Of a stretch of DNA of 64,000 bases, positions 1,291 to 63,126 are shown one piece after another. The stretch is from Candidatus Saccharimonadales bacterium (GTDB lineage: Bacteria > Patescibacteriota > Saccharimonadia > Saccharimonadales > UBA7683): NCBI GenBank assembly GCA_046350615.1, contig JAXMAA010000001.1:268263-332262 (forward strand). Direction: 5' to 3'. The position numbers were made by a program, and so were the translations under genes. Each line of letters opens with the position of its first letter. Position 1 is the stretch's first letter. A model generated the notes under the pieces. That model made no database searches and was not told the DNA's origin. It worked only from the letters and a program-made list of their open reading frames with translations.

Positions 1291-1445
1291 ACAATCCTGT
1301 TCTTATGCACTCTGCCAAACCTTAGCAAAGATGCTATTTACATGCTCAGTGTAACAGATGTGATATACTAGTGTCACCAAGCTATATTTTGCGGTAGTGG
1401 CAAAATCTCTAGCATAACTCAAAATCTAAGTACCAGGAGGTGTGC

Positions 1446-1895
1446 ATGTACAAACGAAGGTTAACGGTTCGTGGCGTTATTATTGATGGCGAAAAAGTGT
1501 TCGCGCAGCAACTCAAAAAGACTGTGGCGAAAGGCGGTGATTGGTGGTGCACTCCTGGTGGAGGTGTTGATGACGGCGAAAGTCTGCACGATGCACTAAA
1601 CCGAGAAATGGTTGAGGAAACTGGGGTAAAACCAGTAATTGGCGAGCTTCTTTTTGTGCAGCAATATACTGACGGTGATAATTCGGAGCAGCTGGAGTTC
1701 TTCTTTCATATTACCAACACCAGTGATTACCACGCAGTTGATCTCAGCAAAACCACCCATGGAGAGATAGAAATCGCCAACTATGGATTTATCAATCCCA
1801 AAGAATTCAATTTACTTCCTGCCGAGCTGCAAGAGATCGATATTGCGAACCACATTAGCAATAATACACCAGTCATGTTCTTTACTCACCTCTGA
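1446..1895 (+). CDS. NUDIX hydrolase
   Basis: Nudix box GGGVDDGESLHDALNREMVEETGV (GX5EX7REUXEEXGU). AGGAGG sits at 1435-1440, 5 nt before ATG 1446. Confidence 0.8.
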   Translation: MYKRRLTVRGVIIDGEKVFAQQLKKTVAKGGDWWCTPGGGVDDGESLHDALNREMVEETGVKPVIGELLFVQQYTDGDNSEQLEFFFHITNTSDYHAVDLSKTTHGEIEIANYGFINPKEFNLLPAELQEIDIANHISNNTPVMFFTHL

Positions 1896-1902
1896 GAATT
1901 GT

Positions 1903-2127
1903 CTACTGATACGCTTGGGCATGCGTACCGACATCAAGGAATATAATCTGATTCTCGGTTTCCTCATAAACCACGCGGATATCCGAAGTTATCGAAAACG
2001 CAAGCTTGCCGGATAGATTACCGGTAAGCGCATGGTCATTGAGTGGGTAGCCCTTTGCATCCTGAAGAAACAGCCCATACCGTTGGTCGAAAGCGTAAGT
2101 TAACTCTCAAAACCTCCCGTTCGTCAT
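1903..2127 (-). pseudogene. RelE/YoeB-family toxin remnant
   Basis: Reverse frame reads MTNGRF*ELTYAFDQRYGLFLQDAKGYPLNDHALTGNLSGKLAFSITSDIRVVYEETENQIIFLDVGTHAQAYQ*. The C-terminal half matches the YoeB/Txe/RelE pattern (PLxxxLxGxxSxRI...RVVYxxxxxxIxxLxxGxHxxxY). There is an in-frame TGA at codon 7 (rc of 2107-2109). The ATG lies inside hairpin repeat copy 2123-2146. It is directly downstream of a DinJ-like antitoxin gene. Confidence 0.45.
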
Positions 2128-2185
2128 TCCCGCGAACGCAGGAATCCAGTTTAAATACTAGATCCCGGATCAAGTCCGGGATGAC
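2123..2185. repeat. Two tandem hairpin mini-repeats (intergenic copies of family 1)
   Basis: gtcattcccgcgaacgcaggaatc (2123-2146) and gatcccggatcaagtccgggatgac (2161-2185). The second has a perfect 8-bp stem, a TCAAG loop and a GGGATGAC right end. Confidence 0.7.
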
Positions 2186-2222
2186 ACAAGATGAGTTTTG
2201 AGAGTCAGGTACTTCCGACCTC

Positions 2223-2540
2223 TCACGAATAATCTGTTTTGTTATTGCTGCCCCGCAAGCCTTTCATAAACCCTTCAACCGTGTTAAACGGACCTTCTAT
2301 ATCAATGCCGTGCTCAACATCACGTGCAGCTTTTTGAAGCCGTGCCGCTGCTTCTGGTGTTGGCTGGCCCCAAACATCGTCAAAATCAATCTCACGACCA
2401 TCAGCCTTCGCCTTAGCCCACACGCGAATATACGCCTGAATAGAATCAAATCCTAAGTTCTTCACATACGCCTCAAACCGATCACGCACATCCGCCTCAA
2501 TCGGCACCTGAATCTTAACCATATTCGATGTTTTACTCAT
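2223..2540 (-). CDS. DinJ/RelB-family antitoxin (ribbon-helix-helix), paralog 1
   Basis: MSKTSNMVKIQVPIEADVRDRFEAYVKNLGFDSIQAYIRVWAKA follows the same pattern as the two other DinJ-like ORFs in this window (TLSIRTDEKTKAAIKAFADSLGLSVSALV and TLSIKTDPKVKAQAQKLAADLGLPLGSLI). Confidence 0.55.
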   Translation of the reverse strand: MSKTSNMVKIQVPIEADVRDRFEAYVKNLGFDSIQAYIRVWAKAKADGREIDFDDVWGQPTPEAAARLQKAARDVEHGIDIEGPFNTVEGFMKGLRGSNNKTDYS

Positions 2541-3525: not shown

Positions 3526-4374
3526 TTATGTCAATATTTGGGCATCTTCAATCTGGTGATTGCCGATTCTGGTGCGGCGGAGTTCGGTGCAGTAGGCGCC
3601 GGTTTTGAGGGTTTTGCCGATATCTTCTACCAAGGAACGGATGTAGGTGCCGCTGCTGACGTCGCAGATGCATTTGAGGTAGGGGTATTCGTAGCTTACT
3701 AGTTGTAATCTGCTGATTGTCACCTTTCGGGATGGAATCTCGAAACTCTTGCCCTCTCGGGCCAGTTTATAGGCCCGTTTGCCGTTAATTTTGATCGCAG
3801 AATAGGCCGGTGGGGTTTGGGTAATCTCTCCCGTGAACTGACGAAGTGCTTGTTGCACTTCTTCGGGAGTTGGATTATTGATAAGTGATTTTTGAAGGGA
3901 AGATAACTCGCGTTGCTCAGGACTTTCTACTGGATTCCCGATCAGGTCGGGAATGACAGAGTCGTCAGATCCTCCGTTTTCCATATTCCATATTCCGTAT
4001 TCCAAAATCTCACCTTCCGGATCGCCCGTGCTACTCACCTCACCGAGCTTTGCGGTGAACTCGTAGGTTTTATCTAGTTTTAGGTATGATGAGGCGTCTT
4101 TGCAGGCATCGCCAACTAAGATAATAAGCAGTCCGGTAGCAAATGGGTCAAGCGTGCCGGCATGACCAACTTTAATTTTTTTGGGTTTTTGGGTGGAAGG
4201 TAACTCGCTTCGCTCAGGTTCATTAAACTGGATTCCCGTCTTCACGGGAATGACGGGTCTATTTGCTATTTGCTGGTATCTGTTATCTGTGTTCCGAAGC
4301 AAGCTTCGGATGCGGGCAACCACATCAAAACTCGTCCATCCGGCTGGTTTATCAATCAGTATTACATCTTTCAT
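3526..4374 (-). CDS. truB: tRNA pseudouridine(55) synthase TruB, carrying two in-frame hairpin-repeat insertions
   Basis: ILIDKPAGWTSFDVV and KVGHAGTLDPFATGLLIILVGDA are the TruB motifs. Extra segments ...RPVIPVKTGIQF... and ...DSVIPDLIGNPVES... are encoded by repeat copies at 4230-4254 and 3932-3957. Confidence 0.9.
   Translation of the reverse strand: MKDVILIDKPAGWTSFDVVARIRSLLRNTDNRYQQIANRPVIPVKTGIQFNEPERSELPSTQKPKKIKVGHAGTLDPFATGLLIILVGDACKDASSYLKLDKTYEFTAKLGEVSSTGDPEGEILEYGIWNMENGGSDDSVIPDLIGNPVESPEQRELSSLQKSLINNPTPEEVQQALRQFTGEITQTPPAYSAIKINGKRAYKLAREGKSFEIPSRKVTISRLQLVSYEYPYLKCICDVSSGTYIRSLVEDIGKTLKTGAYCTELRRTRIGNHQIEDAQILT
3932..3957. repeat. Hairpin mini-repeat, in frame within truB
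   Basis: ggattcccgatcaggtcgggaatgac: stem attcccga/tcgggaat, loop tcagg, then GAC. On the coding strand it is translated as VIPDLIGNP. Confidence 0.75.
4230..4254. repeat. Hairpin mini-repeat, in frame within truB
   Basis: ggattcccgtcttcacgggaatgac: stem attcccgt/acgggaat. It is preceded by the shared module cgcttcgctcagg and translated as VIPVKTGIQ. Confidence 0.75.
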
Positions 4375-11554: not shown

Positions 11555-14233
11555 TTATCTGGTTTCAGAAAATGATACACGATTTTGAGAGAACGTAGCG
11601 ATAATCTTTTGGCCGTCTTTTACTTTGCCCTCGATAATTTCAAGTGCGAGCGGGTCTAACAGATCAGTTTGGATGAGACGCTTGAGTGGACGAGCGCCGT
11701 AATTTGGGTCGTAGCCAACTTCGGCCAGGTGTTTTTTGACGCTTTCATCAATGGTGAGCGTAATATTTTTACTCGTTTTGAGGTGTTTGATTACTCGCTC
11801 AAGCTGAACGCCTACAATGTTGTTCATTAATGCTTCACTGAGCCGCTCGAATACCACAATGTCATCAATACGATTAAGAAATTCTGGACGGAAGTGCGCG
11901 CGCAAACGATCGTTGAGGGCAATCTCAAGTGCTTCGTCAGTCAGCCCAATAGGGCTGTCATCCTCGGACTTGATCCGAGGATCCAGTTTATTTTGTATGC
12001 CCTTGGCATTCTTTGTTTGACTGGATTCCAAATCAAGTTTGGAATGACGGGAAGGAAAGTTGGTGTTCAAAATTAAATCGGAGCCAAGATTGCTGGTCAT
12101 GATAATCACCGTGTTGGTGAAGTTGACGGTTCTCCCTTGCCCATCAGTCAAACGCCCATCATCTAAAATCTGCAGTAGTGCATTAAAGACATCTGGATGT
12201 GCTTTTTCAACCTCATCAAACAACACTACAGCATATGGGCGGCGGCGCACAGCCTCGGTCAGCTGTCCGCCCTGCTCGTAACCAACGTAGCCCGGAGGCG
12301 AGCCAATCAGGCGAGCCACGGCGTGCTGCTCCATGTATTCGCTCATGTCAATGCGCACCATGGCATCTTCATCATCAAATAACTGTTCGGCTAGAGCTTT
12401 GGCAGTTTCGGTTTTACCCACACCGGTTGGACCCAAGAATAAGAACGAGCCGATTGGCCGACCCTCATCGGAAATACCGGCGCGTGAACGGCGAATGGCA
12501 TTGGCCACTGCGGTGATAGCCCGATCTTGCCCAATCACCCGCTTTTCCAACTCCTTTTCAAGATGCACCAGCTTCTCAGATTCGCTCTCTAATAAGCGCG
12601 AAACCGGAATGCCGGTCCAGCGTGCTACCACTCTAGCAATATCTTCGCTCGTCACCTCCTCTTTCAAAAGGCGCTTGTCGCCATCAAGCTTTGCAAGCTC
12701 ACTCTTAGCTTTGGCAATGGCTTTCTCGGCTTCCGGAATTTTGCCGTACTGTAATTCACCAGCTTTTGCGAGATCGTTCTCGCGCTGGGCAGCCTCAAGC
12801 TCCGATTTGTACTGATCGAGATTCTCACTAGCTTGGTTTAAATTATCAATCAGTTCTTTTTCACGCAGCCACTGCGTTTCCAGCCCGCTCGAAGATTCCT
12901 TTAAATCTGCGATCTGCTGCTCAAGCTCTTTTTTGCGCGCCTTAGCACTCTCGGACTTATCTTTTTTGAGCGTGGTAAGCTCAATCTCGAGCTGCATTTG
13001 CTTGCGTTTTGCTCTATCAAGCTCGGTTGGCATGCTTTCTATCTCAATTTTGAGTGCCGAGGTGGCTTCATCTATTAAATCCACCGCTTTGTCGGGCAAG
13101 AATCTATCAGCAATGTAGCGGTCACTCAGCCGCGCCGCCGCAATTAACGCATCGTCAGTAATCTTCACGCCGTGGTGAATTTCGTACTTTTCTTGCAAAC
13201 CCCTGAGAATGGCGATTGAATCTTCTACGCTCGGCTCATTCACATACACCGGCTGAAAACGCCGCTCTAAGGCTGCGTCTTTTTCAACGTACTGCCGGTA
13301 TTCATCGAGCGTTGTTGCTCCAATTAGGTGCATTTTGCCGCGCGCGAGTGAAGGCTTAATCATATTACCGGCGTCAACCGAACCCTCTGATTTTCCCGCG
13401 CCAACAATGGTGTGCAGCTCATCAACAAACAAAATAATTTCGCCATCAGATTTTTCTACCTCGTCAATCACCGCCTTAAAACGCTCTTCAAATTCGCCTC
13501 GATATTTTGCGCCAGCCAGAAGACTGCCGATACTCAGCTCAATCAGCTTCTTATTTTTTAGACTACTCGGCACGTCGCCATTCACAATGCGCTGCGCCAA
13601 ACCTTCAGCAATAGCTGTTTTACCCACGCCTGGCTCGCCAATCAGCACCGGATTATTTTTAGTACGGCGAGAAAGTACCTGCATCACGCGCCGAATTTCT
13701 TCATCACGGCCAATAACCGGATCTAACTTGCCACTCCGAGCCAGCTCGGTGAAATCCTGCCCATATTTTTCCAGCACATTTTGCTTATTTTCAGGAGATT
13801 GATCCATAACCTTCCGCCCTCCTCGCACACTTTCAATATTATTTTTAAGCTCATTGTAATCTACGTTAATCAACTTTTGTTCCGCCGCCGCCAAAAGCAC
13901 ATGCTCAGTACTCACGTGCGTGTCGCCGAGATTCTTCGCCTCTTTTTCGGCCCGCTCAATCAGCTTAATGAATTCTCTGTTTGGTCTGATATCAACACTC
14001 GAGACCTCCGCACTACTCTTAGCTACAGCATCGAGACCGTTATTCACAATCCGCACCACCTCATCGCGCACATTCGCCCGATCAATCAAAATCGTAAACG
14101 TCGTATCCGCTTGCTCAAGTAGTGCCTTTAGTAAGTGCCACTGAGAAAACTCCAGATTTTGATGCTCACGAGCCAACTCCACCGCTCGCTGCAGCGCCTC
14201 AATCATCTTATGAGTCAATGAATCCGTATTCAT
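11555..14233 (-). CDS. clpB: ATP-dependent chaperone ClpB, with two in-frame hairpin-repeat insertions near the C-terminus
   Basis: Two AAA+ modules ([10 protein letters not shown] and GPTGVGKTE), a coiled-coil middle domain and a Clp N-domain. The extra segment ...[42 protein letters not shown]... lies between MTSNLGS and [10 protein letters not shown]. Confidence 0.95.
11957..11983. repeat. Hairpin mini-repeat, in frame within clpB
   Basis: gtcatcctcggacttgatccgaggatc (reverse orientation): stem atcctcgga/tccgaggat, loop TCAAG. Translated as DPRIKSEDD. Confidence 0.75.
12023..12048. repeat. Hairpin mini-repeat, in frame within clpB
   Basis: ggattccaaatcaagtttggaatgac: stem attccaaa/tttggaat, loop TCAAG. 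Translated as HSKLDLESS. Confidence 0.75.
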
Positions 14234-16260: not shown

Positions 16261-17142
16261 TTATTGTAGCACAGCAGGGGCGACCTGGCATTTTGGGCAA
16301 ATGTGGGTGCCGCGGCCAGCAACGCGGGTTTTTATGATGGTGGTGCCGCAGCGCTGGCATGGGGTGCCCTCTTTTCTGAAGACGCGGGCGAAGGAGATGT
16401 AACTGCCTTTTTTGCCCTCGGCATTGACGTAATTTTTATCGGTTGAGCCGCCTTTTTCTATCGAGAGCCCAAGAACTGCTCGCAGTTCGGTGTAGAGGTT
16501 GTTAATTTTAGATTTTGGGATGTCTATCACCTTGGTTTCGGGGTGAATCTTGGCCGCCCAAAGACTTTCATCGGCGTAGATGTTGCCTACCCCGGCAATC
16601 ACGGTTTGATCTAAAAGTACTGCTTTAATGCCCGAGTTTTTTCGCCGCAGCAACCTATCTTCAAAAATCGATAATCTAAAATCTGCCTCGAGCGGCTCTG
16701 GGCCCACCTTCTTCATAAAATCAATATTCGGTACTTCAATTGTTGGATATAATCTCACCCAACCAAACTTGCGCTGATCATTGAAAAATAATCTTGCACC
16801 GTTATCGAGGTCAAATATCACCCGGGTAGAGCGATCTGGTAGTTCACCAACCAGCGAATCGTTTGGGTGCCCTGCCCCAAATACAGCCTCTCCCCTATAG
16901 ACAATCTGGCCCGTCATTTTTAAGTGAATGACCAGCGTGTGCTCAGTGGAAAGATCGATTAATAGCAGCTTCGCGCGACGACGAATATCAATTACCGTTG
17001 CGCCAACAAGAAACTCATCTACATCGGCTCGGGCATTTGGAAAGCTTTTTTCGGTATCTGAAGAAACAGCAACGACCTTGTGGCCAATCAATAGCCTCTG
17101 TAAACCGCGTCGAACTGTTTCAACCTCAGGAAGTTCTGGCAT
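16261..17142 (-). CDS. mutM: Formamidopyrimidine-DNA glycosylase
   Basis: MPELPEVETVRRGL N-terminus, an H2TH region and a C-terminal zinc finger CQRCGTTIIKTRVAGRGTHICPKCQ. Confidence 0.95.
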   Translation of the reverse strand: MPELPEVETVRRGLQRLLIGHKVVAVSSDTEKSFPNARADVDEFLVGATVIDIRRRAKLLLIDLSTEHTLVIHLKMTGQIVYRGEAVFGAGHPNDSLVGELPDRSTRVIFDLDNGARLFFNDQRKFGWVRLYPTIEVPNIDFMKKVGPEPLEADFRLSIFEDRLLRRKNSGIKAVLLDQTVIAGVGNIYADESLWAAKIHPETKVIDIPKSKINNLYTELRAVLGLSIEKGGSTDKNYVNAEGKKGSYISFARVFRKEGTPCQRCGTTIIKTRVAGRGTHICPKCQVAPAVLQ

Positions 17143-18606: not shown

Positions 18607-19101
18607 TCACGCATAGATACCACTTAGCTCATTGCGAACACGCATCAATATAAGGCCAAGATGATTCTCGCCGTCAGTACTACCTATTGGGTCTACACCC
18701 CAGAACCGATCACCCCAATCATTACCTTCAACTAGCTCTTCGACACCGGTCTGAGCAAGTAATAATGCGATGTCGTGATTGGCTGCGAATTTCCGCTTCA
18801 CCGCCTCGTACATTAAATCAAGCTTTGCGTTTGGCCAGTCTGGGAGCTGCTCTTCACCGGAATCTACGAGCTTTCGTGCGAAACTTTTAACTGCCTTTCC
18901 ATTCGCATACCAAGAGGCATCGCTCGGCTCGGCACGAATCTCAGCGACTTCACGTTGGACATCAGGATCAACAAATCGGCCCGACATATACACATGCTCA
19001 GAAGTAGGAACTTGAATACCGCAAAGTGCCAAGATTGGTACCTTCAGTGGGTACATATTACTGAGGTAAAAATGCTCACCCCGAAAACGTTCGATTGTCA
19101 T
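18607..19101 (-). CDS. NADAR (YbiA-like) domain protein
   Basis: N-terminal FRGEHFYLSNMYP matches the DUF1768/NADAR signature (FxGxYxFLSNF). Confidence 0.65.
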   Translation of the reverse strand: MTIERFRGEHFYLSNMYPLKVPILALCGIQVPTSEHVYMSGRFVDPDVQREVAEIRAEPSDASWYANGKAVKSFARKLVDSGEEQLPDWPNAKLDLMYEAVKRKFAANHDIALLLAQTGVEELVEGNDWGDRFWGVDPIGSTDGENHLGLILMRVRNELSGIYA

Positions 19102-21899
19102 AAATCACCCCAAGTTTTGCCGGATTTTACATCTACTTTTAATTTTACAGGGAGTTTGGTGTAAATATTTTCCATGATTTCAATTAGAAGCTTCTCTACT
19201 TCTTCAGTTTGTGATTCTTTGCACTCAACAATGATTGAATCGTGAATCTGCAGCAACTGACGCGGAGCGTCATCCTCAGCTTGACTGGGGATCTCGTTAG
19301 TATTGGCACGAGATCCCCGATCAAGCCGGGAATGACGGCTACCCATACCCATCAGTTTTTTATCTACTTCGATCATTGCTAGCTTCATTAAGTCCGCCTC
19401 TGTACCCTGAATTGGCATGTTCATAGCTGCCCGTTCTGCACTTGAGCGAACAATAAAATTACTCGATGTAATATCTGGCATCGGTCGCCGCCTACCAAAT
19501 AACGTCTCGACATAGCCTTTACTCTTGGCTGTTTCAATCAATTCAGCCGTGTAGTCAAACAGGGGTTTTCGTAGTTCTTTGTACCGAGTGAGAAACTCTT
19601 TGGCTTCATTTAAATTCATGCCGGTAGCCACACTTAAGCCGTGAGTGCTCATACCGTATAAAATGCCGAAGTTAATTACCTTGGCGTGTCGGCGTTGATC
19701 TGGAGTGACCTCGTGCGGCTTGATACCGTATACCTGCGCAGCTGTGGCGGTGTGAATATCGGCATCTTGATTGAACAGCTCAATAAGTTCTGTATCACCA
19801 GCCATAGCCGCCGCAAGTCGCAGTTCAAATTGGCTGTAATCGGCACTAACCAGCACATTGCCCTCCCCAGCTCTGAAGGCCTTGCGAATTTTTTTACCGA
19901 TTTCAGTGCGCACCGGGATGTTTTGTAGGTTTGGCTCGGCAGATGAAAGCCGACCGGTTTGTGCAATAGTCAGACGAAAATCGGTATGCAAACGTGAATG
20001 TTGATCAATCAGCTTCGGCAAGGCATCAACATAGGTAGACTTCAGCTTGGTATATTCACGGTACTGTGTAATCAAATTAATGATGGGATGCGACCAACGC
20101 AGTTTATCAAGCTCATTGGCAGCCGTAGAATAGCCAGTCTTGCCCTTCTTCACGCCTTGAGTTGGTAGCTTCAGATCTTCAAACAATACTTTCGCAAGTT
20201 GCGAAGGCGAGCTGATGTTAAATTCTTGGTTAGCATGGCCATACACCTCTTGTTCAATGTCAGAGATGATACCCTCAAACTCTTCACTCATTTTGGCCAA
20301 GTATGGAGCATCGAGCTCAATGCCCGCCACCTCCATACGAGCCAAAACTGAAATAATTGGCCACTCAACTTCTTCAGCCAATTTAATCAGACCGGTCAGT
20401 TCGCTCATTTGTTCACCTTGTTGATGAGCGAGGTGCGAAATAACCGCACTCAACGTGGCAGCCTTGGCGATTAACTCCTGCGAATCGATATTATCAAGTT
20501 CGGTTTCCACCCCAAGATCTCGTGCCGCCATCTCAGTTAAACTAGTCTCTCGCTGCAAGCTGTTGATTAAAAAACCGCCAATGAGCGTATCGTGTGCAAT
20601 CTGCGGTAGCACGCTGTCATCCTGAACTTGTTTCAGGATCCGTTTTGAGTCGTTGGTAGATTCTGAAACAAGTTCAGGATGACGTGCCAAGAGCAGCATT
20701 TTGAACACGTGTTTAAGGTCGTGGCCGATAACACTTTTTGGCTTGAAGTGACTGAGAACAGCCGGTAAATCATTGCCGAGCTGCTCGGCATCAAGCACGA
20801 AAACCGCCTTCTCATGCGCCAGAATAAACAGTTGTGGCTGGCTGCCAAGTGCATCGCTTGAGCGACCATACAACACAACCTCTGCTTTACCGTTCAGAGC
20901 TGCTAACTTCTCGGCATCCGAGACTGACGTAATATGTTGCACACTGCCAAGCTTCAGATCAGAAAAACCGGCCGCCGCCTGCTCCTCCTCGCCATCATCA
21001 TGATTCTGCATATGTTCTGGCAAGTTACGCAGCAAGCTTCTAAATTCAAATTTTTTAAGAAGAGTCTTGAGCTTGGCAGTATCGAGATCGTTCACGTCCA
21101 TATCCGGGAGATCAAGCTCAACTGGTGCGTCATCATAGAGCTCGGCCACCTCTTTGCTCATATATGCCGAGGCACGGCCGGCTTCCAGTTTTTTTGCAAG
21201 CGTTGGTTTAATGTGCTCGAGATTTTCGTAAACATGGGCAAGCGTGCCGTATTCTCGTAAAAGTTCGGCGGCAGTCTTCTCGCCAACCCCTGGTACACCA
21301 GGAATATTATCAGAACTATCGCCTTTCAAGCTTTTTAAATCCAGAAATTGCTCTTTTTTAATACCGTACTTGTCCTCGAACGCTGCGATATCAAACCGCT
21401 CGATGTTACTAAAACCCTTCTTGAGAGCGTAAACTTGCGTGTGCTCGCCAACACTCTGCAGGGCATCAAGATCTGAGGTAATAAGCATTGTTTCAAGCCC
21501 GGCTTTATCAGCCTTTAGGGCAAGGGTGTGCATGATATCATCAGCCTCGTAATCGTCAAACTCATAGAGCGGCCAGCTGAAAGCATCAAGCAGCTCATAG
21601 AGCAACGGAATTTGTTTATAAAAATCCTCTGGTGCTGCCTTTCGCCCAGCTTTGTACTCTGGGTGTACCGCCAAACGTCGGCGAATATTCGTTTTTGGTT
21701 TGTCCCACGCCACACAGACGTAATCTGGCTTAAGCTTCTTCAGAAGCTCTAAACTCATAGCAGCAAAGCCATACACTCCACCCGTAGGTGTACCATCTGC
21801 CATGCTTAAATTACCCATGGCATAGTAGCCACGATAAAAAACCGACTTCCCATCAATAATCGCCAGCTTCTTACGTACTTCCGTCATCATCATTGCCAA
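19098..21899 (-). CDS. polA: DNA polymerase I, with an in-frame ~30-aa insertion made of two hairpin repeats before motif C
   Basis: 5'-3' exonuclease N-terminus, 3'-5' exonuclease-like domain, polymerase motifs A (DYSQFELR) and B (RRHAKVINFGILYG), and LLQIHDSIIVE (motif C). The segment MGMGSRHSRLDRGSRANTNEIPSQAEDDAPRQ is encoded by repeat copies 19269-19336. Confidence 0.95.
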   Translation of the reverse strand: MAMMMTEVRKKLAIIDGKSVFYRGYYAMGNLSMADGTPTGGVYGFAAMSLELLKKLKPDYVCVAWDKPKTNIRRRLAVHPEYKAGRKAAPEDFYKQIPLLYELLDAFSWPLYEFDDYEADDIMHTLALKADKAGLETMLITSDLDALQSVGEHTQVYALKKGFSNIERFDIAAFEDKYGIKKEQFLDLKSLKGDSSDNIPGVPGVGEKTAAELLREYGTLAHVYENLEHIKPTLAKKLEAGRASAYMSKEVAELYDDAPVELDLPDMDVNDLDTAKLKTLLKKFEFRSLLRNLPEHMQNHDDGEEEQAAAGFSDLKLGSVQHITSVSDAEKLAALNGKAEVVLYGRSSDALGSQPQLFILAHEKAVFVLDAEQLGNDLPAVLSHFKPKSVIGHDLKHVFKMLLLARHPELVSESTNDSKRILKQVQDDSVLPQIAHDTLIGGFLINSLQRETSLTEMAARDLGVETELDNIDSQELIAKAATLSAVISHLAHQQGEQMSELTGLIKLAEEVEWPIISVLARMEVAGIELDAPYLAKMSEEFEGIISDIEQEVYGHANQEFNISSPSQLAKVLFEDLKLPTQGVKKGKTGYSTAANELDKLRWSHPIINLITQYREYTKLKSTYVDALPKLIDQHSRLHTDFRLTIAQTGRLSSAEPNLQNIPVRTEIGKKIRKAFRAGEGNVLVSADYSQFELRLAAAMAGDTELIELFNQDADIHTATAAQVYGIKPHEVTPDQRRHAKVINFGILYGMSTHGLSVATGMNLNEAKEFLTRYKELRKPLFDYTAELIETAKSKGYVETLFGRRRPMPDITSSNFIVRSSAERAAMNMPIQGTEADLMKLAMIEVDKKLMGMGSRHSRLDRGSRANTNEIPSQAEDDAPRQLLQIHDSIIVECKESQTEEVEKLLIEIMENIYTKLPVKLKVDVKSGKTWGDL
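19269..19336. repeat. Two adjacent hairpin mini-repeats in frame within polA
   Basis: gtcatcctcagcttgactggggatc (19269-19293, reverse orientation, TCAAG loop on the other strand) and gagatccccgatcaagccgggaatgac (19310-19336), followed by the conserved GG. Confidence 0.7.
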
Positions 21900-37885: not shown

Positions 37886-38440
37886 AAATAATATTTTGTG
37901 ATAAACTGTATTCATCATCGTTTTGCGGCAACTGTGAGGTGGAGAACTCTCAGCTAACCAGCAAAGGATAGCGATGAGTACTTATAACAAGAGACGTACA
38001 GGCTATCAGAGTAATCTGATGGTTTTTGGCGCCTTAAAGTAACTCATAGGTAAAACGAGATCGCCTATAAAGTGGTCATGTGAGGTACATTAACAAGCTA
38101 CGGTACATAACTTTTGTTATGTATTAGTCAAATCATTACAGTGTATAAACCTGTTGCAACAAAGGCTTCGGGGCAGAGTTGTGTTTAGCTGAATTAACTT
38201 TTGATCCGCCGCAAACGAACCAAAGGCTAATTCGCCGCTAAGCACTACTCTGCTCCTGAGGCAGTTCGGCCTTACAGCTTGAACACTTTAGTTGCAGCAG
38301 ACCGTTTACTTTGTGCGCTTATAGTTACTATAAGATGCACTCGAACACACTAACGCAACAAGCGCATTGATAGCCTTCCAGTTGGGCAGGAGGTATGCCG
38401 CCAAGTACATAATTATGAAAAAATTGTGTGCTGCGCGGCA
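37886..38440 (+). ncRNA. ORF-free ~0.55-kb region with its own promoter-like element; candidate structured ncRNA, not classified
   Basis: TTGACA(taaataatattttgtga)TAAACT at 37886-37914 is followed by ~500 nt that lack ORFs of 60 aa or more on either strand and contain many local stem-loops (e.g. ggcttcggggc; gcgccttaaag...). No motif of tmRNA, RNase P, SRP or 6S RNA could be confirmed by eye. Confidence 0.25.
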
Positions 38441-38468
38441 TATCCCCAACCCGACCCAGGAGGTCATT

Positions 38469-39332
38469 ATGCCACGTCCCACCACGCACGATGACCTCGT
38501 GCGCAAGAGCCGAGGGATCACCTCGGCCCACAAGGGCTTGGCCGGTCACACGGCCGAGCTCACCGAGCTCAAGACCCGGCTGCGGCAGGCGCAGGACCGC
38601 ATCGCCCAGATGCAGCCCACCGTCAGCCACGTGCCGGGTCACCAGCGCGGGCTGATCCGCCTCAGCGGGCGGATCAAGGCCCTCGACGCCCAGCTCAACG
38701 AGCTGCTGCACCGCGAGGCCACCGGCACCACCGGTGGCAAGGAGCCCAGCCCCACGCTGACGGCTGCCTGGCAGAAGGAGTTCGACCGCCTCCAGCAGGA
38801 GGTGCGCGGCTACTTCACGGACCTCGACAGCCAGATGGCTGCGATCCGCGATCGGCTCGACGAGCACGACCTCAAGTTCGCCAACCACGGCGAGCGGATC
38901 GAGGCCGTGGAGGTGCAGAGCAACGCGAACGCCACGGCGATCGCCAGCCTGCGCAGCCGCGTCGACGAGCGGGTCCACCCCGCGCTCTGGATCGCCTCCT
39001 TCGTGGGGGCCATCTTGGGCGGCCTGTTCATGGCCGTCTACGACTGGAGCAGGGTCATCAAGGTCAGCGAGACCACGACGACGGTCGGTAACCCGGCCCT
39101 CGACTCGTGGTTCGGCATCACGCTGGGCGCCCTCGTGGGGTTCTTCGTGGTGTTGGCGATCGGCATGCTCTTCAGCGCCCTCGCGGGCAACGATGAGCAG
39201 GAGGTGACCACCGCTTCGGCGGCGTCCGCCTCGAGCCGCATCGCGATGCGTGATGTGGCAGCTCCGCCGACGGCGGTGCAGCCGGTGATCCCGCAGCCAG
39301 CTTCGGTCGACCGGCCTCAGCCGGTCGCCTAG
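38469..39332 (+). CDS. Hypothetical coiled-coil membrane protein (island gene 1)
   Basis: ATG 38469 lies 5 nt after AGGAGG. The N-terminal ~170 aa are Gln/Leu/Arg-rich coiled-coil-like. There are two transmembrane helices (ALWIASFVGAILGGLFMAVYDW and WFGITLGALVGFFVVLAIGMLF) and an Ala/Pro-rich tail. Confidence 0.7.
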   Translation: MPRPTTHDDLVRKSRGITSAHKGLAGHTAELTELKTRLRQAQDRIAQMQPTVSHVPGHQRGLIRLSGRIKALDAQLNELLHREATGTTGGKEPSPTLTAAWQKEFDRLQQEVRGYFTDLDSQMAAIRDRLDEHDLKFANHGERIEAVEVQSNANATAIASLRSRVDERVHPALWIASFVGAILGGLFMAVYDWSRVIKVSETTTTVGNPALDSWFGITLGALVGFFVVLAIGMLFSALAGNDEQEVTTASAASASSRIAMRDVAAPPTAVQPVIPQPASVDRPQPVA

Positions 39333-39470
39333 CTGGCGCTGCCGAGCTCCCCATGAGGAGAAGGTTATGTGCACCTGGGTACTCGGGATACTAAATCCTG
39401 CCCAAAGCGCCGGGGGCAACAGCTACCCACAGTCCAACACGCTTCAACCACAATAGGAGGTAGCTCTCAA

Positions 39471-40529
39471 ATGAGCAGGCGTACCGCAAGTGCAGCGGGG
39501 GCGGTGGTGGCTTTGGCCCTACTGCTCCTGGCTGGGCTCATCATCACGGTGAGTTCCAGCAATGCCAAGGGCGACGGGGGTCCCCCCATCGACCCGAAGG
39601 CGAAGTGCGGAACCAAGACCGGTTTCCTGGCGGACTACGCCACTGGAAACCGGTTCGGTCCCGCGGTGACCGAGACCAACGTCGACAAGGTCAAGGAGCA
39701 GCTCCACACGGAGCGGTGTCTTGACCCGATGAAGGTCGTAGCTCACCTCGAGTACCAGGCCCGTGCCTACTCCTCTCCGGAGGAGCGGGCCGAGCACACG
39801 CGTCGGCTGCGGGACACCCCCAACGCCCGCGTGAGCGCGATCGCCAAGCTCGAGGCTCGGGAGCGTTCGGCCGTCAAGGTCGAGATCACCGAGATGAGCA
39901 ACGAGTACCAGACCATGTACGCGGTCAGCAAGGGGCACGACGTTCCGTACGTCTACGCCACCACCGCCGACCGTCCGCGGTTCAAGGTGCTCAAGTTCAG
40001 CTACTCGGACGGGTCGTGGGACGCGTACAAGCTGGATTGCGATTTCCAGCCCGTCGCGACCCGGTTCCCCGGGCTGCCGCAGTCGCCACCGCCTCCGGGC
40101 ACGACGACCACGGTTCCCGGGACCACCCCAGGCACCACTCCCGGAACGACCCCGGGCACTACGCCCGGTACGGTTCCTCCAGGCACGGTGCCGCCGGGGG
40201 TCACCACGACCACCAGGCCGGGGGTCACCACGACCACCAGGCCGGGTAGTACCACGACCACGACGGTCCCCCGGTGCACCCACAAGTGCTCCGAGGACAG
40301 CCCTGTGAGTTCGAACCCGAACGATCCCAACGAGAACGTTCGTCCGAACGGCACGGAGCCGCAGCGGCCGCCGACGACGGCTCCGGCTCCGCCGACGACC
40401 GTGGCCCCGCCGACGACGGTTGCGCCTCCCGCGCCCCCGCCGCCGACGACGGCTCCGGCTCCGCCGCCTGACGACAGCTGTGTCGACCCTCATGAGGTCG
40501 GCCTCTGCGAAAGGGCAAGGGCAGCCTAG
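39471..40529 (+). CDS. Hypothetical secreted/anchored protein with Thr/Pro-rich linkers (island gene 2)
   Basis: ATG 39471 lies 10 nt after AGGAGG. It has an N-terminal signal/anchor (AAGAVVALALLLLAGLIITVSS), a ~200-aa Cys-containing domain, (TTPG)n and PPTTVAPP repeats and a Cys-containing C-terminus. Confidence 0.7.
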   Translation: MSRRTASAAGAVVALALLLLAGLIITVSSSNAKGDGGPPIDPKAKCGTKTGFLADYATGNRFGPAVTETNVDKVKEQLHTERCLDPMKVVAHLEYQARAYSSPEERAEHTRRLRDTPNARVSAIAKLEARERSAVKVEITEMSNEYQTMYAVSKGHDVPYVYATTADRPRFKVLKFSYSDGSWDAYKLDCDFQPVATRFPGLPQSPPPPGTTTTVPGTTPGTTPGTTPGTTPGTVPPGTVPPGVTTTTRPGVTTTTRPGSTTTTTVPRCTHKCSEDSPVSSNPNDPNENVRPNGTEPQRPPTTAPAPPTTVAPPTTVAPPAPPPPTTAPAPPPDDSCVDPHEVGLCERARAA

Positions 40530-40673
40530 ACCGCGTGGCGGTCATCGGTACTTCACGGTACCGGCTGCGTGTAACACATAAGTTACTCGTAAGTTAACAA
40601 GGCCGTGAACAGGGTATGGGGAACCCGTGATGTCAGATCACAAAACCTTCGCGTTAGTTCGAATAGTAGACGG

Positions 40674-55899: not shown

Positions 55900-56754
55900 A
55901 TGAATGTTATTGAACTCACCGAAATCAGCCGCGTTTTTGGACTGGGGAATGGCGCCACTCGAGCGCTCAAAGGGGTGAATTTGAGCGTGCCAAAGGGTGA
56001 GTTTTTGGTAATCATGGGGCCAAGCGGATCTGGTAAAAGCACGCTGCTCAATATTATTGGCCTGCTTGATCAGCCGGATGACGGCGAATACAAGCTCGAC
56101 GGCCGCGATGTAGCCTTTTTAAGCCAACGCCGCCGCGCCAAAATTCGCCGCAATCATATTGGCTTTATTTTTCAGAACTTCAACCTGATCGGCCGGATGA
56201 ATATTTTAGAGAACGTCAGCCTGCCGCTCCTCTACAAAGGCATCGCTACCATCAAACGATATGAACGCGCCAGTGAAATTTTGAGATATCTTGGCATTCA
56301 AGAAAAAGAGTATTACCTGCCAAACCAGCTTTCTGGCGGCCAGCTGCAACGCGCAGCCATCGCCCGTGCCATGGTTAATCGCCCAAGTATTGTGCTAGCT
56401 GATGAGCCAACTGGCAATCTCGACACCAAGGCTACGAAAATTATCATGGCAGCCCTAAGAGAGATTCACGAAGCCGGCAACACTATCGTCATGGTCACGC
56501 ATAATCCAGATCTTGCCGCGTATGGTGATCGTGTTATAAAAATGCTCGATGGCCGCATTACCGAAGAGCTAACGGGTAGCTCAATCACTAAGGACTTACA
56601 GGAGCAGAAGAAAGAGGCGGAAGAGATTGTGAAAGCCGCAACTAGCCTGGCAGTCAGAAAGCCAAGAAGGAAGAAGGCTGCACACAGTAAGCAGATAAGG
56701 GATAAGAAGAAAGCCAAGAAGACAGGTTCGCGCAGAAAAGGGGCCAAGAAATGA
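55900..56754 (+). CDS. ABC transporter ATP-binding protein (MacB/LolD-like) with a Lys-rich C-terminal tail
   Basis: [12 protein letters not shown] Walker [15 protein letters not shown] signature, ADEPTGNLD Walker B and H-loop TIVMVTHN. Confidence 0.9.
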
Positions 56755-57965
56755 TCAAACAACACGCTCGAATGGCCGTTAATTCTCTTCGCAGTAATAA
56801 AGTTCGCACCTTTTTGACTTTACTCGGTATTATCATTGGTGTCACCTCAGTTACCACCGTAATTGGGCTTGGCGAGGGTGTCAAACGGCAAGTGAACCAA
56901 CAGATTAATGATCTTGGAAGCGACTTGATTACTATTGTACCTGGCCGAAATGCAACCATTAGTGGCTTTGATTCGCTCAGCGGCATACTCGGAAGTAATA
57001 CTTCGAGCGCGCGTCTCAGTGAAGCCGACCTTACTAGCGTCTCAAAACTACAGAACATTGATGCCGCCGGTGGTGTTATGCAGCTTGATAGCTCAATCGC
57101 CAGGGGTGAGAAGAAGCGTAACATTAAAGTCCTGGCTGTTGGTGAGGACTACCTTGAACTTACCCGCCAGAAGCTCACTAGCGGCCAATTTTTTGGGGGT
57201 AATTTAGAAAACAATAACACTGTTATTCTTGCCAGTAATGTGGCTCAAGAACTTTTTGGCAGCGACGACCCTATCGGCAGCAGCGTGACCATCCGCGGTA
57301 CTAACTTTGTCATCATTGGCGTGCTTGATGCCTCCAAGGGCTTCAATCTTGGCAGACCAATCAACGACCTAGTCTTGATCCCCCTCCCTACTGGCAAAAT
57401 GCTCAATCAAGATACCGCTCAGCTGCAACAGATCACCGTTAAAGTAAAAGATATCAATCAAAGCAAAGCCACTGCAGAAGCAATTAACGATGCTCTTCTG
57501 AAAAATCACAGCGGCGAAGAGGATTTCACCGTTACCACCCAAGATCAGTTGGTTAATACCACCGATTACGTGTTTCGGGTTCTCACCGGCTTTACTGCCG
57601 CCGTGGCCTCTATTTCACTGCTCGTGGGCGGGATTGGCGTCATGAACATTATGCTGGTAACTGTTACAGAGCGAACCCGTGAGATCGGCGTTCGGAAAGC
57701 TGTTGGCGCAACCAAGCTTCAGATTATGATGCAATTCCTGGTTGAAGCGCTCGCTATCACGCTTGCAGGCGGCCTAATTGGTATTTTAACGAGCTTGCTT
57801 GCTGGTTACATCATTCGCACCCAAACCGCCGTCAAACCCGCCATGGATCTCTGGATCATCCTTCTCGCCACCGGCGTATCTTTAATGGTCGGTATCATCT
57901 TCGGCACCTGGCCCGCCATTCGTGCCGCCCGCAAAGACCCCATCGAAGCCCTCCGCCACGATTAA
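56751..57965 (+). CDS. ABC transporter permease (FtsX/MacB-type)
   Basis: N-terminal transmembrane helix, a large extracytoplasmic MacB-like domain and a C-terminal FtsX four-helix bundle. It overlaps the ATPase stop by 4 nt, suggesting an operon. Confidence 0.9.
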   Translation: MIKQHARMAVNSLRSNKVRTFLTLLGIIIGVTSVTTVIGLGEGVKRQVNQQINDLGSDLITIVPGRNATISGFDSLSGILGSNTSSARLSEADLTSVSKLQNIDAAGGVMQLDSSIARGEKKRNIKVLAVGEDYLELTRQKLTSGQFFGGNLENNNTVILASNVAQELFGSDDPIGSSVTIRGTNFVIIGVLDASKGFNLGRPINDLVLIPLPTGKMLNQDTAQLQQITVKVKDINQSKATAEAINDALLKNHSGEEDFTVTTQDQLVNTTDYVFRVLTGFTAAVASISLLVGGIGVMNIMLVTVTERTREIGVRKAVGATKLQIMMQFLVEALAITLAGGLIGILTSLLAGYIIRTQTAVKPAMDLWIILLATGVSLMVGIIFGTWPAIRAARKDPIEALRHD

Positions 57966-58034
57966 CCTTCCGTCACTCCTGCGCAGGTGGGAATGCAGGG
58001 GGAGGATATTCAGGAACAGGCCCAGAATGACGGC

Positions 58035-58466
58035 TTAGGTTCGTTCTTTTACTCGTTGCTCCGGGGTTTCGTTTGGACGCGAGTAATCATCTTCAAGGCG
58101 CCAGGTAGTACCCTTTTCTGGGGTAGATACTTCAATAATATCGCAATTCGTTATGCCAACTAGTCGGTGTTTTTGGCCAAGCTTGGTACTGTAACCAACC
58201 TGTTTTTCAAGCTTGGTCTCTACCATCTGCCCTAATTCGTTCTCCCAAATAACCGATGCCTCACCTGAGGCAAGGAACCAGCTCTCCACTTTTTCGTCAT
58301 GCACCTGCAGTGAGAGCCGTGCACCTGCATTGATATGGATCAACTTGCCCATATATGGTGCGTCTTCTGGAACCCAATGTAACTCATAGCCCCACGGCTT
58401 TTCAATGCGTCGAATATACGAGCTTGTGGTGAAATCTTTAGGATCAAAAGTCGGCATTGTTTGCAT
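58035..58466 (-). CDS. Cupin-domain protein (type II mannose-6-phosphate-isomerase-like)
   Basis: KPWGYELHW...LHINAGARLSLQVHDEKVESWFLASGEA is the cupin motif pair G(X)5HXH...G(X)5PXG(X)2H. Confidence 0.75.
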   Translation of the reverse strand: MQTMPTFDPKDFTTSSYIRRIEKPWGYELHWVPEDAPYMGKLIHINAGARLSLQVHDEKVESWFLASGEASVIWENELGQMVETKLEKQVGYSTKLGQKHRLVGITNCDIIEVSTPEKGTTWRLEDDYSRPNETPEQRVKERT

Positions 58467-61122: not shown

Positions 61123-62769
61123 CTACATCCCCATCATTGATGGGTCCATGCCGCCGCCAGATGGAGCTGCGGGAGCTTTTTCTGGGATATCTACCACTAG
61201 TGCACCCATAGTCATAGCCGTGCCAGCAATTGACGCGGCGTTTAAAATCGCCTCTTTGGTTACACGGGCAGGATCCACCACGCCCGCCTTCTTCATATCT
61301 TGTAAGCCCGCATCTGGGTCGTTCACATTAATACCTTGACCAGCTTTACCAGCCTGCACCTGTGCAAGGAGCGCCTGAGCATTCAGACCAGCGTTCGTCA
61401 TGAGTTGTACAAACGGCTGCACCAAAGCATTCTTTAGGAGTACCGCTCCTGCTGAAGTTGAATCAGTGGCATCGTCAGTAATTGTCCCTGCAAGATTGAC
61501 CAGTGTTACACCACCGCCAGATACCACACCTTCGTCTAGGGCTGCTTTAACGGCTGCTACGGCATCGTCTACACGGAACTTCTTCTCTTCAATTTCAGTT
61601 TCAGTCGCACCACCAACCTTAATCACTGCAACTTTACCCTCTAAGGCTGCTCTGCGCTTCTCGAGGTTCTCTTTTTCGTACTCACTTGAGGCATTGCCAG
61701 CCTGAGCACTAATTTGCTCTACACGAGCTGCTACGGCCTTTGCAGAGCCTGCTCCTTCAATAATGGTGGAGTTATCTTTATCAACAATAATACGGCGAGC
61801 AGTACCAAGCATACTGATATCGGCATTCTCAAAGGTGTGGCCTTGATCTTCAGTAATCACCTGCCCACCTGTCAAAATTGCGATGTCTTCTAAAATCTCT
61901 TTACGCCGATCACCAAAAGCCGGAGCCTTAATGGCCAAGGTGTTAAACACTCCCTTCAATCTATTGAGAATCAAGGTGCCGAGTGCTTCGCCCTCGACAT
62001 CTTCGGCGATAATTACCAGATCTTTTTTACCTGTTTGCGCAACTTTTTCTAAAATTGGCAGAAATTCTTGAACTGAACTAATTTTTTTGTCGGTAATCAG
62101 TACCAACGGCTTATCGTACACCGCCTCCATACGAGCGGTATCAGTTACCATGTAGGGGCTCACAAAGCCACGGTCAAACGTAAAGCCCTCTACTACCTCT
62201 GATTCCATTACCAGGCCCTGGCCCTCTTCAACGGTAACAACACCGTCTTTGCCAACTTTTTCAATCACATCAGCGATTAGTGCGCCAATTGCCGCATCAC
62301 CAGCTGAAATGGTTGCTACTTCAGCTACTCGCTTTTTATCACCAGCGATATCTTCGCGCATGGTTCTCAGCTTCGCAATCACTCCTTCAGCAGCTTTTTC
62401 CAGACCTTTACGCAGCTGCATCGGGTTGTGGCCGGCAGCAATCAGCTTGTTTGCCTCATTCAAGATGTGGTATGTCAATACTGTAACAGTGGTAGTACCA
62501 TCACCCGCTACATCGTTCATCTTGCTGGCCGCTTGCTTAATCAGTTCAGCTCCAACTTTGTAGCCCAAAGTCTCGTCGTCTTCTGGCAACTCAATACCCT
62601 TGGCAACCGTTACGCCGTCGTGAGTAACAGTTGGGCTGCCGAAACTCTTAGAAATCACCACATTTCGGCCTTTTGGCCCCATAGTAGTTTTCACGGCGTT
62701 AAATAAAATCTCTGCCCCAGCCAGTAGGCGGCGGCGCGCGTCTTCATCGTAAAATACTTTTTTTGCCAT
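61123..62769 (-). CDS. groL: Chaperonin GroEL
   Basis: MAKKVFYDEDARRRLLAGAEILFNAVKTTMGPKGRNVV...GDGTTTVTVL...AVKAALDEGVVSGGGV and a C-terminal GGM repeat. Confidence 0.98.
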   Translation of the reverse strand: MAKKVFYDEDARRRLLAGAEILFNAVKTTMGPKGRNVVISKSFGSPTVTHDGVTVAKGIELPEDDETLGYKVGAELIKQAASKMNDVAGDGTTTVTVLTYHILNEANKLIAAGHNPMQLRKGLEKAAEGVIAKLRTMREDIAGDKKRVAEVATISAGDAAIGALIADVIEKVGKDGVVTVEEGQGLVMESEVVEGFTFDRGFVSPYMVTDTARMEAVYDKPLVLITDKKISSVQEFLPILEKVAQTGKKDLVIIAEDVEGEALGTLILNRLKGVFNTLAIKAPAFGDRRKEILEDIAILTGGQVITEDQGHTFENADISMLGTARRIIVDKDNSTIIEGAGSAKAVAARVEQISAQAGNASSEYEKENLEKRRAALEGKVAVIKVGGATETEIEEKKFRVDDAVAAVKAALDEGVVSGGGVTLVNLAGTITDDATDSTSAGAVLLKNALVQPFVQLMTNAGLNAQALLAQVQAGKAGQGINVNDPDAGLQDMKKAGVVDPARVTKEAILNAASIAGTAMTMGALVVDIPEKAPAAPSGGGMDPSMMGM

Positions 62770-62825
62770 ATACTTACTCCTTTTCTTGATATCATTTCTG
62801 CAAAAGCAGAAATCATTATGTAACT

Positions 62826-62851
62826 GGATCCCGTATCAGGTACGGGATGAC
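62826..62851. repeat. Hairpin mini-repeat in the groES-groEL spacer
   Basis: ggatcccgtatcaggtacgggatgac: stem atcccgta/tacgggat, loop TCAGG, then GAC. Confidence 0.7.
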
Positions 62852-62859
62852 GAGTCCCG

Positions 62860-63126
62860 CTACGCGAGCGTTGCCAAAATGTCTTCTTCTTTAATGATTA
62901 GATATTCGACACCATCAACCTTGACTTCAGTAGTTGAATACTCCTTGTAGACAATTCGGTCGTTAGTCTTCACAGTTTTCACATCGCTACCGGTTGCTAC
63001 AACTTTGGCAACTTTAGATTTTTCTTTGGCGCTATCTGGCAGATATAAGCCCGATGCAGTTTGGCTCTTTGCCTCTTCAACTTGGGCAACAACTCGGTCA
63101 GCCAGTGGTTTTAGCGGTACACTCAT
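62860..63126 (-). CDS. groS: Co-chaperonin GroES
   Basis: MSVPLKPLADRVVAQVEEAKSQTASGLYLPDSAKEKSKVAKVVATG, including the GroES mobile-loop region. Confidence 0.95.
   Translation of the reverse strand: MSVPLKPLADRVVAQVEEAKSQTASGLYLPDSAKEKSKVAKVVATGSDVKTVKTNDRIVYKEYSTTEVKVDGVEYLIIKEEDILATLA

Follow-up and report, generated by a model that had tools for sequence, protein, structure and literature searches.

CGTC-tagged repetitive extragenic palindromes (REPs) carry a terminal CGTC, often replaced by TGTC, a stem of 8–9 bp that nearly always begins with AT, a loop of 4–5 nt, and a tail near CCA (Di Nocera, De Gregorio & Rocco 2013, BMC Genomics 14:522; PMC3733652). They form mainly HH dimers, in which the tags lie outside, and no dedicated transposase is known for them (PMC3733652). 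CGTC-1 comprises Neisseria dRS3 and RPE-6 of R. conorii, and CGTC-4 is RPE-4. Intragenic copies encode 20–30 aa, giving peptides such as VIPAKAGI, CHSRESGNP, and VIPWLDHGIQ, and their targets include dnaE, uvr and rec genes, truB, and DNA polymerase I. The published polA copies lie at aa 338–367 of R. palustris RPE_4821 and aa 304–325 of M. aeruginosavorus MICA_2230, and an excess of REPs is found in replication and repair genes. No genome of the CPR (candidate phyla radiation) or of the Saccharibacteria appears in the strain list of that study (PMC3733652). Here we describe elements of this kind in a 64,000-nt stretch of a Candidatus Saccharimonadales genome (contig JAXMAA010000001.1, positions 268,263 to 332,262), referred to below as the window. 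One of them lies in frame in polA, just upstream of polymerase motif C.

We interpret this polA insert as a tolerated, translated, selfish CGTC REP dimer in a permissive loop and not as a dedicated peptide module, a reading to which we assign a probability of about 0.8. The inserted element is a CGTC-tagged REP dimer in the HH arrangement, of the same kind as RPE-4/RPE-6 and dRS3. Direct observation shows what the element is, that it is multi-copy, that the sister orthologue does not have it, that its frame is open, that it sits in a loop, and that it is conserved at the level of nucleotides and not of the peptide. The first-pass annotation of this DNA had called a repeat insertion so close to the catalytic aspartate surprising. 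The insert is not confined to polA; it is one copy of a dispersed family that is also present in clpB, truB, and intergenic DNA of the window, and CGTC-tagged REPs with intragenic polA and truB copies have already been described in other bacteria (PMC3733652). What is new is the presence of in-frame CGTC REPs, or RPE-type palindromes, in Saccharibacteria and the polA site ahead of motif C; the element type itself was already known.

The open reading frame (ORF) of polA opens at TTG as listed, although translation probably begins at an ATG 2–4 codons downstream. Its product, PolA, contains a 5′-nuclease domain, a vestigial 3′-5′ exo-like domain, and a family-A polymerase domain, and PF02739, PF01367, and PF00476 are present in its homologues. 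PDB matches found with HMMER are Bst, Taq, and Klenow (E about 1e-97), and the residues of motifs A, B, and C are present along with the Pol I fold. The minus-strand ORF encodes MGMGSRHSRLDRGSRANTNEIPSQAEDDAPRQ followed by LLQIHDSIIVE. HMMER pairs PRQLLQIHDSIIVE of PolA with ARLLLQVHDELILE of Bst Pol I, in agreement with the motif C assignment of the first-pass annotation, and the catalytic Asp codon is at 19239–19241. The alignment to Bst Pol I breaks exactly at the insert, with query fragment 3–316 matching chain residues 205–518 and fragment 346–399 matching 525–577. The last repeat-encoded residue is 4 residues ahead of LLQIHD and 10 ahead of the catalytic Asp.

The insert is a single inverted repeat within the polA ORF, a 70-nt imperfect palindrome whose two 30-nt arms are 83% complementary and separated by a 10-nt spacer; a match of this kind was found in 0 of 100 shuffles. 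The RNA fold has a predicted energy of −53 kcal/mol, against −29.6 ± 3.4 in dinucleotide shuffles (z = −6.9; 0 of 200 as stable), and no U-run or other signal adjoins the insert. The two repeat copies that had been proposed at 19269–19293 and 19310–19336 are each a hairpin unit, scoring 39.0 and 38.4 bits with the covariance model described below, and the in-frame insert of two hairpin repeats just upstream of motif C is thereby borne out. The size of ~30 aa given to it was slightly generous. In the nearest orthologue, L009, the whole expanded loop (Table 1) is represented by PKDA (within PKDAAQ), so that the window gene is longer by a net 78 nt (26 codons), and relative to Bst Pol I the motif-C loop is about 23 aa longer. 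Direct repeats or tandem duplication were considered as the origin of the insert and rejected, only chance-level direct repeats of 11–12 nt being found around the site. A codon-level comparison with L009 and L002 gave no clean junction from which a target-site duplication or an exact empty site could be read, and a few flanking codons were also changed.

A separate feature of this motif C is the sequence HDS (window 19233–19241), in which Ser replaces the usual Glu of HDE. The H, D, and S are invariant across 77 aligned Saccharibacteria PolA sequences, and classical Pol I's second motif-C carboxylate is therefore missing throughout this clade.

A scan of the whole window for hairpins with a GTC tag and an AT-first stem found 12 units, against a mean of 1.8 and a maximum of 5 in 100 shuffles. 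A covariance model, R1, built from 11 units recovered those 11 and a twelfth at E < 0.01. The tag is CGTC in eight units, including both units of the dimer ahead of motif C (dimer 1), and TGTC in four. Stems are 8 bp long in 11 units and 9 bp in one, all beginning with AT, and the loops are CTTGA, CTTGT, CCTGA, or CCTGT (5 nt) or GAAC or GAAG (4 nt). A CCAG tail is found in 7 of the 12 units, and the four polA units carry CTCG, CTCG, CCGT, and CTAC. The inner stem varies between copies yet remains complementary. An alignment of 26 copies from the window and its relatives, itself fitted to the model, has 96.5% of its cells in pairs and changes on both sides in 5 of 8 pairs, a result matched by 0 of 500 shuffles; stem pair 1 is AU in 25 of the 26 copies and pair 2 is UA in all of them. 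Stem mismatches counted by eye comprise four G-T and two A-C cases, too few to inform on an RNA or a DNA role.

Ten of the units form five HH dimers (Table 1), one of which is a second dimer in polA (dimer 2, at site 2) that the first-pass annotation had missed. Eight of the 12 units are intragenic, making up the two polA dimers, one clpB dimer, and two single truB units. All are frame-preserving, and the five intragenic insertions contain no stop codon. The three intragenic dimers measure 70, 70, and 94 nt, all 1 mod 3, and the frame they use, (C)GT CAT...GAT GAC, encodes a stop-free, hydrophilic RH...DD peptide. The third frame always runs into TGA (in GGATGAC).

In another reading the insert is not translated, being removed like an intron, skipped by programmed ribosome bypass, or spliced out of the protein as a mini-intein. 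Programmed bypass is exemplified by T4 gene 60 and the yeast mitochondrial "byps," and a compact, stable hairpin in a coding region resembles such elements. However, all five intragenic insertions are in frame and free of stops, which would be needless if they were skipped, and the insert has no pair of take-off and landing codons with an intervening stop. No intron family matched, and 26 aa without intein blocks is far too small for an intein. We regard an untranslated insert as highly improbable. With regard to known RNA families, introns, and riboswitches, a gathering-threshold Rfam scan of the whole window returned just two tRNAs, and an E-value scan of 19000–21000 gave only generic hairpin matches far below gathering scores; neither contained anything relevant.

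The 120 best PolA homologues (P0001–P0120) were compared, and the loop ahead of motif C could be parsed in 93 of them. The nearest relatives are proteins from Candidatus Saccharibacteria metagenome-assembled genomes, usually 880 aa long. The best of these, L009/P0001, is 88% identical and has neither polA insert. A short loop of 13–14 aa ending in KLPxGAKQ is found in 73 of the 93 parsed Saccharibacteria sequences. The loop is expanded in about 20, and about 8 of those 20 are clearly REP-like, with peptides RHSELDSES, CHPELVEGS...SRQARND, RHPRLDRESS...AEDD, VIPAEAGSQ, RHPGRDPGS, and RHPESAEGS. The earlier statement that family-A polymerases normally have no spacer here is thus correct for Bst, Taq, Klenow, and the 73 short-loop sequences but not for the expanded ones, and the ortholog comparison that it called for found the insert absent from most orthologues, including the closest.

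The loop ahead of motif C is therefore a recurrent indel site, and indels of at least 6 aa in the 120 sequences are confined to 3–4 positions. Insert-bearing PolA sequences are scattered in a neighbour-joining tree, in which the sister of the window PolA has no insert. At site 2, the P0061/L021 protein, only 61% identical, has a REP dimer at the same place. Long and short loops also differ at position −3 from LLQ, which is Pro in 20 of 20 long-loop alleles (xP[KR]Q) and Ala in 73 of 73 short ones (GA[KR]Q-like), although the long alleles are scattered in the tree. Among insert-bearing relatives, model R1 detects 9 units in the L020 locus and others in those of L021–L023 and L001; it detects none in L009, in ten other Saccharibacteria loci, or in the non-Saccharibacteria loci. 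Two of these relatives also have CGTC units in fpg, encoding formamidopyrimidine DNA glycosylase, at 16436–16499 of L020 (VIPAKAGIQ...SEPRMT) and 12670–12698 of L023 (CHSRVGGNP). Both occupy one loop between LVY and FGAGHP, which is empty in the L021 orthologue; Fpg is thus a further repair enzyme in which one loop is occupied recurrently.

An assembly or amplification artefact, in which a fold-back chimera would have made the palindrome, is effectively refuted. Multiple displacement amplification or library chimeras can generate palindromes, but homologous inserts are found at the same codons in independent assemblies from other samples (L020, L001/L023, L021, and L022), the reading frame is preserved, and other members of the unit family bring its count in the window to 12.

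The polA gene itself has a mosaic relationship to that of L009 (3001–5634), nucleotide identity being 92–98% over the first ~250 codons and about 77–88% after them, which suggests intragenic recombination within polA. A large recombination tract may have carried the insert: local nucleotide identity to L020 rises across about 60 codons around site 1, the site of dimer 1, whereas insert-bearing alleles do not cluster in 117 conserved C-terminal columns.

Comparison of individual inserts separates conservation of the peptide from conservation of the nucleic acid. Between the window and L020 the insert differs at 6 codons, all non-synonymous and none synonymous, and the 27-nt right arm is identical. 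The pattern is the same in two other pairs: one synonymous and three non-synonymous differences separate the L001 and L023 inserts, and two synonymous and eight non-synonymous differences separate the window from L021 at site 2. The exact 27-mer arm, GAGATCCCCAGTCAAGCTGAGGATGAC, is also present in 41 metagenome contigs (L024–L064) with GC contents of 0.26–0.56, mostly marine, in none of which is it in a polA context. Often it forms an HH dimer with CGTCATTCCCAACTTGATTGGGAATC, and the spacer between the two, CTGTTCATCGTTTTCTAAATCAT, is conserved. Very different organisms thus share identical REP variants. Because the codon differences are mostly non-synonymous and the 27-mer arm recurs in unrelated contigs, conservation belongs to the repeat family, as DNA or RNA, and not to the peptide. 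For the same reason, identity of the arm is no evidence of shared descent, since an identical 27-mer is found in 41 unrelated contigs.

PolA was modelled with AlphaFold2 from a 77-sequence alignment (model numbering is ORF numbering minus 3). The mean predicted local distance difference test (pLDDT) score is 89.8, and values below 50 are confined to the inter-domain linker (299–309), insert 2 (411–425), and insert 1 (866–871), with flanks above 90. The helix ahead of insert 1 is modelled as running into the insert with falling confidence, followed by coil and then by strand 877–882, which is LLQIHD. In Foldseek the large fragment superposes on Bst Pol I with a target-normalised template modelling (TM) score of 0.89–0.91 and a root-mean-square deviation of about 2.7 Å. 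Both inserts are accordingly predicted to be low-confidence surface loops off an otherwise ordinary Pol I fold. The first-pass annotation had proposed either structural tolerance or a functional role for the translated peptide. Tolerance is the reading favoured by the low-confidence loops and the close superposition on Bst Pol I, and a peptide role is disfavoured by the wholly non-synonymous codon differences from L020.

An adaptive protein module would require that the loop ahead of motif C had been recruited to alter polymerase behaviour, for example in lesion bypass, lower fidelity, or partner binding. Analogues would be the palm inserts of Pol theta or the mutator idea raised for REP-tagged repair genes. 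The Pol theta inserts, of 58 and 33 aa, are needed for bypass of apurinic/apyrimidinic (AP) sites (PMC9962433). Repeated occupation of the same loop in scattered Saccharibacteria lineages, the perfect linkage of long loops with Pro at −3, the REP units in one Fpg loop of both L020 and L023, and the REP excess in replication and repair genes (PMC3733652) are consistent with recruitment. Against it, the peptide is not conserved (0 synonymous and 6 non-synonymous differences), REP subtypes differ by lineage, AlphaFold2 confidence is low at the insert, the sister lineage and most relatives are without it, and the same element is found in intergenic DNA and in unrelated proteins. We consider such a module quite unlikely.

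Alternatively, the hairpin could act as mRNA or DNA inside polA and be kept for that role, with the peptide incidental: it could be a site for RNase III or for decay, could pause the ribosome and so help domains to fold, or could bind a protein or gyrase. The very stable RNA hairpin, the conservation of the arms in nucleotides, and the co-varying stems fit this proposal, as do the intergenic copies, which lie where convergent genes end and between groES and groEL; for REPs elsewhere, a role at the RNA or DNA level has been proposed (PMC3733652). The hairpin is conserved family-wide, however, so its conservation says nothing specific about polA, and the closest relative is without the insert. 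The lack of an adjoining U-run or other signal and of any Rfam family at threshold also weighs against a dedicated function in polA, which we judge unlikely.

The preferred reading, a tolerated selfish dimer, can be stated as a sequence of events, of which neutrality for enzyme function and the mechanism of insertion are the parts that we infer. A REP dimer would have inserted into polA on the lineage leading to the present genome, and its survival would have depended on three properties. First, the dimer is 70 nt from tag to tag and the net change of +78 nt is a multiple of three. Second, its RH...DD frame is without a stop and strongly hydrophilic. Third, it lies in a surface loop between the long palm helix and the motif-C β-strand, which it meets at the end opposite the catalytic Asp. 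Translation would run through the dimer to give a disordered 26-residue loop, which the polymerase would tolerate; the loop peptide would be a by-product, the conserved part being the nucleic-acid hairpin. Insertion that depends on a single-strand hairpin, with later selection for permissive loops and/or short-patch recombination via the highly conserved flanks, would account for the repeated occupancy of the same loop. Three processes are possible reasons why the same loops are hit repeatedly. One is a selective filter, the indels of at least 6 aa being limited to 3–4 positions; the others are targeted insertion and short-patch recombination through extremely conserved flanks, polA being visibly mosaic.

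Several observations weigh against a tolerated selfish dimer. About 8 lineages with REP-like inserts in one loop, together with a distant lineage that shares site 2, may not be what a random neutral process would produce. It leaves the association of long loops with Pro unexplained, and no target-site duplication could be defined in the comparison with L009 and L002. The insert is also just 10 residues in sequence from the catalytic Asp. A more speculative proposal, which we hold to be unlikely, is that in some Saccharibacteria lineages CGTC REP dimers are not randomly scattered but are targeted to, or selectively retained at, a small set of specific loops in enzymes of replication and repair (the PolA loop ahead of motif C, the PolA exo-like domain, and one Fpg loop), where the insert ahead of motif C might alter lesion bypass or fidelity like the Pol theta palm inserts. 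The repeats would then act as a repeat-driven switch of repair-enzyme properties.

Table 1. The polA gene and the CGTC-type REP elements of the 64-kb window (positions counted from the first nucleotide of the window).
Feature	Position	Strand	Basis or description
polA (DNA polymerase I)	19098..21899	minus	933-codon ORF
Motif C, LLQIHDSIIVE	19224..19256	minus	HMMER alignment to LLQVHDELILE of Bst Pol I
CGTC-type REP dimer 1, tag-outside (HH), 70 nt, in frame in polA	19268..19337	.	Translated RHSRLDRGSRANTNEIPSQAEDD
REP unit 1a: CGTC tag, stem ATCCTCAG/CTGGGGAT, loop CTTGA, tail CTCG	19268..19297	+	Covariance model, 39.0 bits, E 3.6e-7
REP unit 1b: CGTC tag, stem ATTCCCGG/TCGGGGAT with two G-T pairs, loop CTTGA, tail CTCG	19308..19337	minus	Covariance model, 38.4 bits, E 5e-7
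Whole expanded loop, MGMGS-[REP dimer]-A	19266..19352	minus	Codon-level comparison with nearest orthologue
CGTC-type REP dimer 2 (HH), 70 nt, in frame in polA exo-like middle domain	20615..20684	.	Arms 96% complementary; translated RHPELVSESTNDSKRILKQVQDD
CGTC-type REP dimer (HH), in frame in clpB (ORF 11555-14233, minus)	11956..12049	.	NBD2 loop ahead of FRPEFLNR
Single CGTC-1-like unit, in frame in truB (ORF 3526-4374, minus)	4227..4255	minus	Encodes VIPVKTGIQ in ~38-aa insert
Single CGTC unit, in frame in truB (ORF 3526-4374, minus)	3929..3958	minus	Encodes VIPDLIGNP in second, ~36-aa insert
Intergenic HH dimer flanked by convergent ORFs 1440-1895 (+) and 2223-2540 (-)	2122..2186	.	Inverted-repeat and covariance-model scans
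Intergenic HH dimer, partly degenerate, between convergent ORFs 56751-57965 (+) and 58035-58466 (-)	57971..58032	.	Unit 58003-58032 at 22.3 bits
Single unit in groES (62860-63126) / groEL (61123-62769) spacer	62823..62852	minus	Covariance model

The remaining copies in the window are found in three settings. In clpB the repeat encodes 31 residues, and the alignment to T. thermophilus ClpB splits at its position. The clpB loop is 63 aa long, compared with 24–27 aa in 104 of 116 hits with a parsable loop and 51 aa in the longest other; these hits are mostly fragments and come from many phyla, and the repeat peptide is in none of the other parsed loops. The two truB inserts, whose lengths were measured against M. 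tuberculosis TruB, are homologous to each other beyond the REP unit, sharing CCTGAGCxAxGCGAGTTAxCTTCC, which suggests that they belong to a larger composite repeat. The insert with the CGTC-1-like unit is directly upstream of the catalytic KVGHAGTLDP motif. Of the intergenic copies, the two HH dimers lie exactly between the ends of convergent genes and the single unit separates groES from groEL, positions expected of terminator-like or mRNA-stabilising REPs. Dimer 2 of polA (20616–20683) has a sub-threshold Rfam match to RF02901, Aggregatibacter sRNA 41 (33.5 bits, E = 2e-5, where the gathering score is 97), and a similar REP dimer may be part of this "sRNA" family.

These copies extend in-frame palindromic selfish DNA, the phenomenon represented by the Rickettsia RPEs, to the Saccharibacteria, which are ultra-small, host-dependent, and have almost no intergenic space; most copies in the window sit inside essential genes. 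Peptides of the RH...DD, CHPELVEGS, and VIPAKAGIQ types should be annotated and modelled as repeat read-through and not as domains, and they should be masked when polA, clpB, truB, and fpg are aligned or used in phylogenies. Many metagenomic relatives have these two PolA loops either filled or empty, and they form a natural series on the tolerance of the palm to insertion, and this series could help explain how CGTC REPs spread without a known transposase. The sharp contrast between close relatives with and without the repeats could likewise let phylogenetic profiling identify the enzyme that moves CGTC REPs.

Elsewhere in the window, at about 38300–40550, a ~2.2-kb island has a GC content of about 0.62, compared with 0.46 in the rest, and contains Pro/Thr/Arg-rich ORFs and long overlapping antisense ORFs. 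It is possible that this island is foreign DNA, for example actinobacterial host-like, or an assembly chimera.

Among known systems, Pol theta resembles the window PolA as a family-A polymerase with an extra palm loop of ~33 aa. The Pol theta insert 3 presumably lies in the same loop as polA insert 1. HMMER aligns Pol theta through the insert region unbroken and at equal length (query 137–400 with chain 596–859 of 8ef9_A). The Pol theta inserts differ in being conserved functional protein loops, not repeats, and are required for AP-site bypass.

The GTAG REPs and REPINs, which are mobilised by REP-associated tyrosine transposases (RAYTs) and include the E. coli BIMEs and Pseudomonas REPINs, are similarly dispersed and multi-copy, and have two short inverted hairpin units that, across a short spacer, can together form a single long hairpin. 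To our knowledge REPINs are essentially extragenic, unlike most of the window copies. The tag of all window units is CGTC or TGTC, not GTAG, and no RAYT is known for CGTC REPs (PMC3733652).

Neisseria dRS3 (CGTC-1) has the same layout as the window units with a 4-nt loop, for example CGTCATTCCCGCGAACGCAGGAATCCAG at 2122–2150. The dRS3 elements form large intergenic clusters and are integration targets for phage and insertion sequences. We know of no dRS3 copies that serve as in-frame protein inserts.

Ogata et al. (in work from 2000 and 2002) reportedly found Rickettsia palindromic elements, including the longer RPE-1, in frame in housekeeping genes. The intragenic window copies are likewise in-frame palindromes in housekeeping genes of a reduced, host-dependent genome, predicted to be translated as surface loops. 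The polA insert has the corresponding traits, being in frame, absent from orthologues, and predicted to encode a surface peptide (a low-pLDDT loop on an intact fold). The peptide types VIPAKAGI, CHSRxxGNP, and VIPxLDxGIQ recur, and truB is also a target. The host belongs to another phylum, however, and the elements here are dimers of ~30-nt units, not RPE-1 elements of 100–150 bp.

The closest likeness is to the CGTC REPs themselves (CGTC-1 and CGTC-2/4). The host is a difference, the window belonging to the Saccharibacteria (CPR/Patescibacteria), and our literature search found no paper tying REP or RPE elements to Saccharibacteria or the CPR. The intragenic share, 8 of 12 units, is very high in comparison with the published CGTC REPs, and the polA copies have the variant tails CTCG, CCGT, and CTAC. 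The window units share the tag, stem, loop, and compensatory stem variants of these families, with a CCAG tail in 7 of the 12, and are mostly HH dimers with spacers of tens of nucleotides, found also at convergent gene ends. In-frame copies are present in polA and truB, as in the published cases; the published polA copies are near the junction of the 5′-nuclease and exo domains (aa 304–367), whereas insert 1 of the window precedes motif C.

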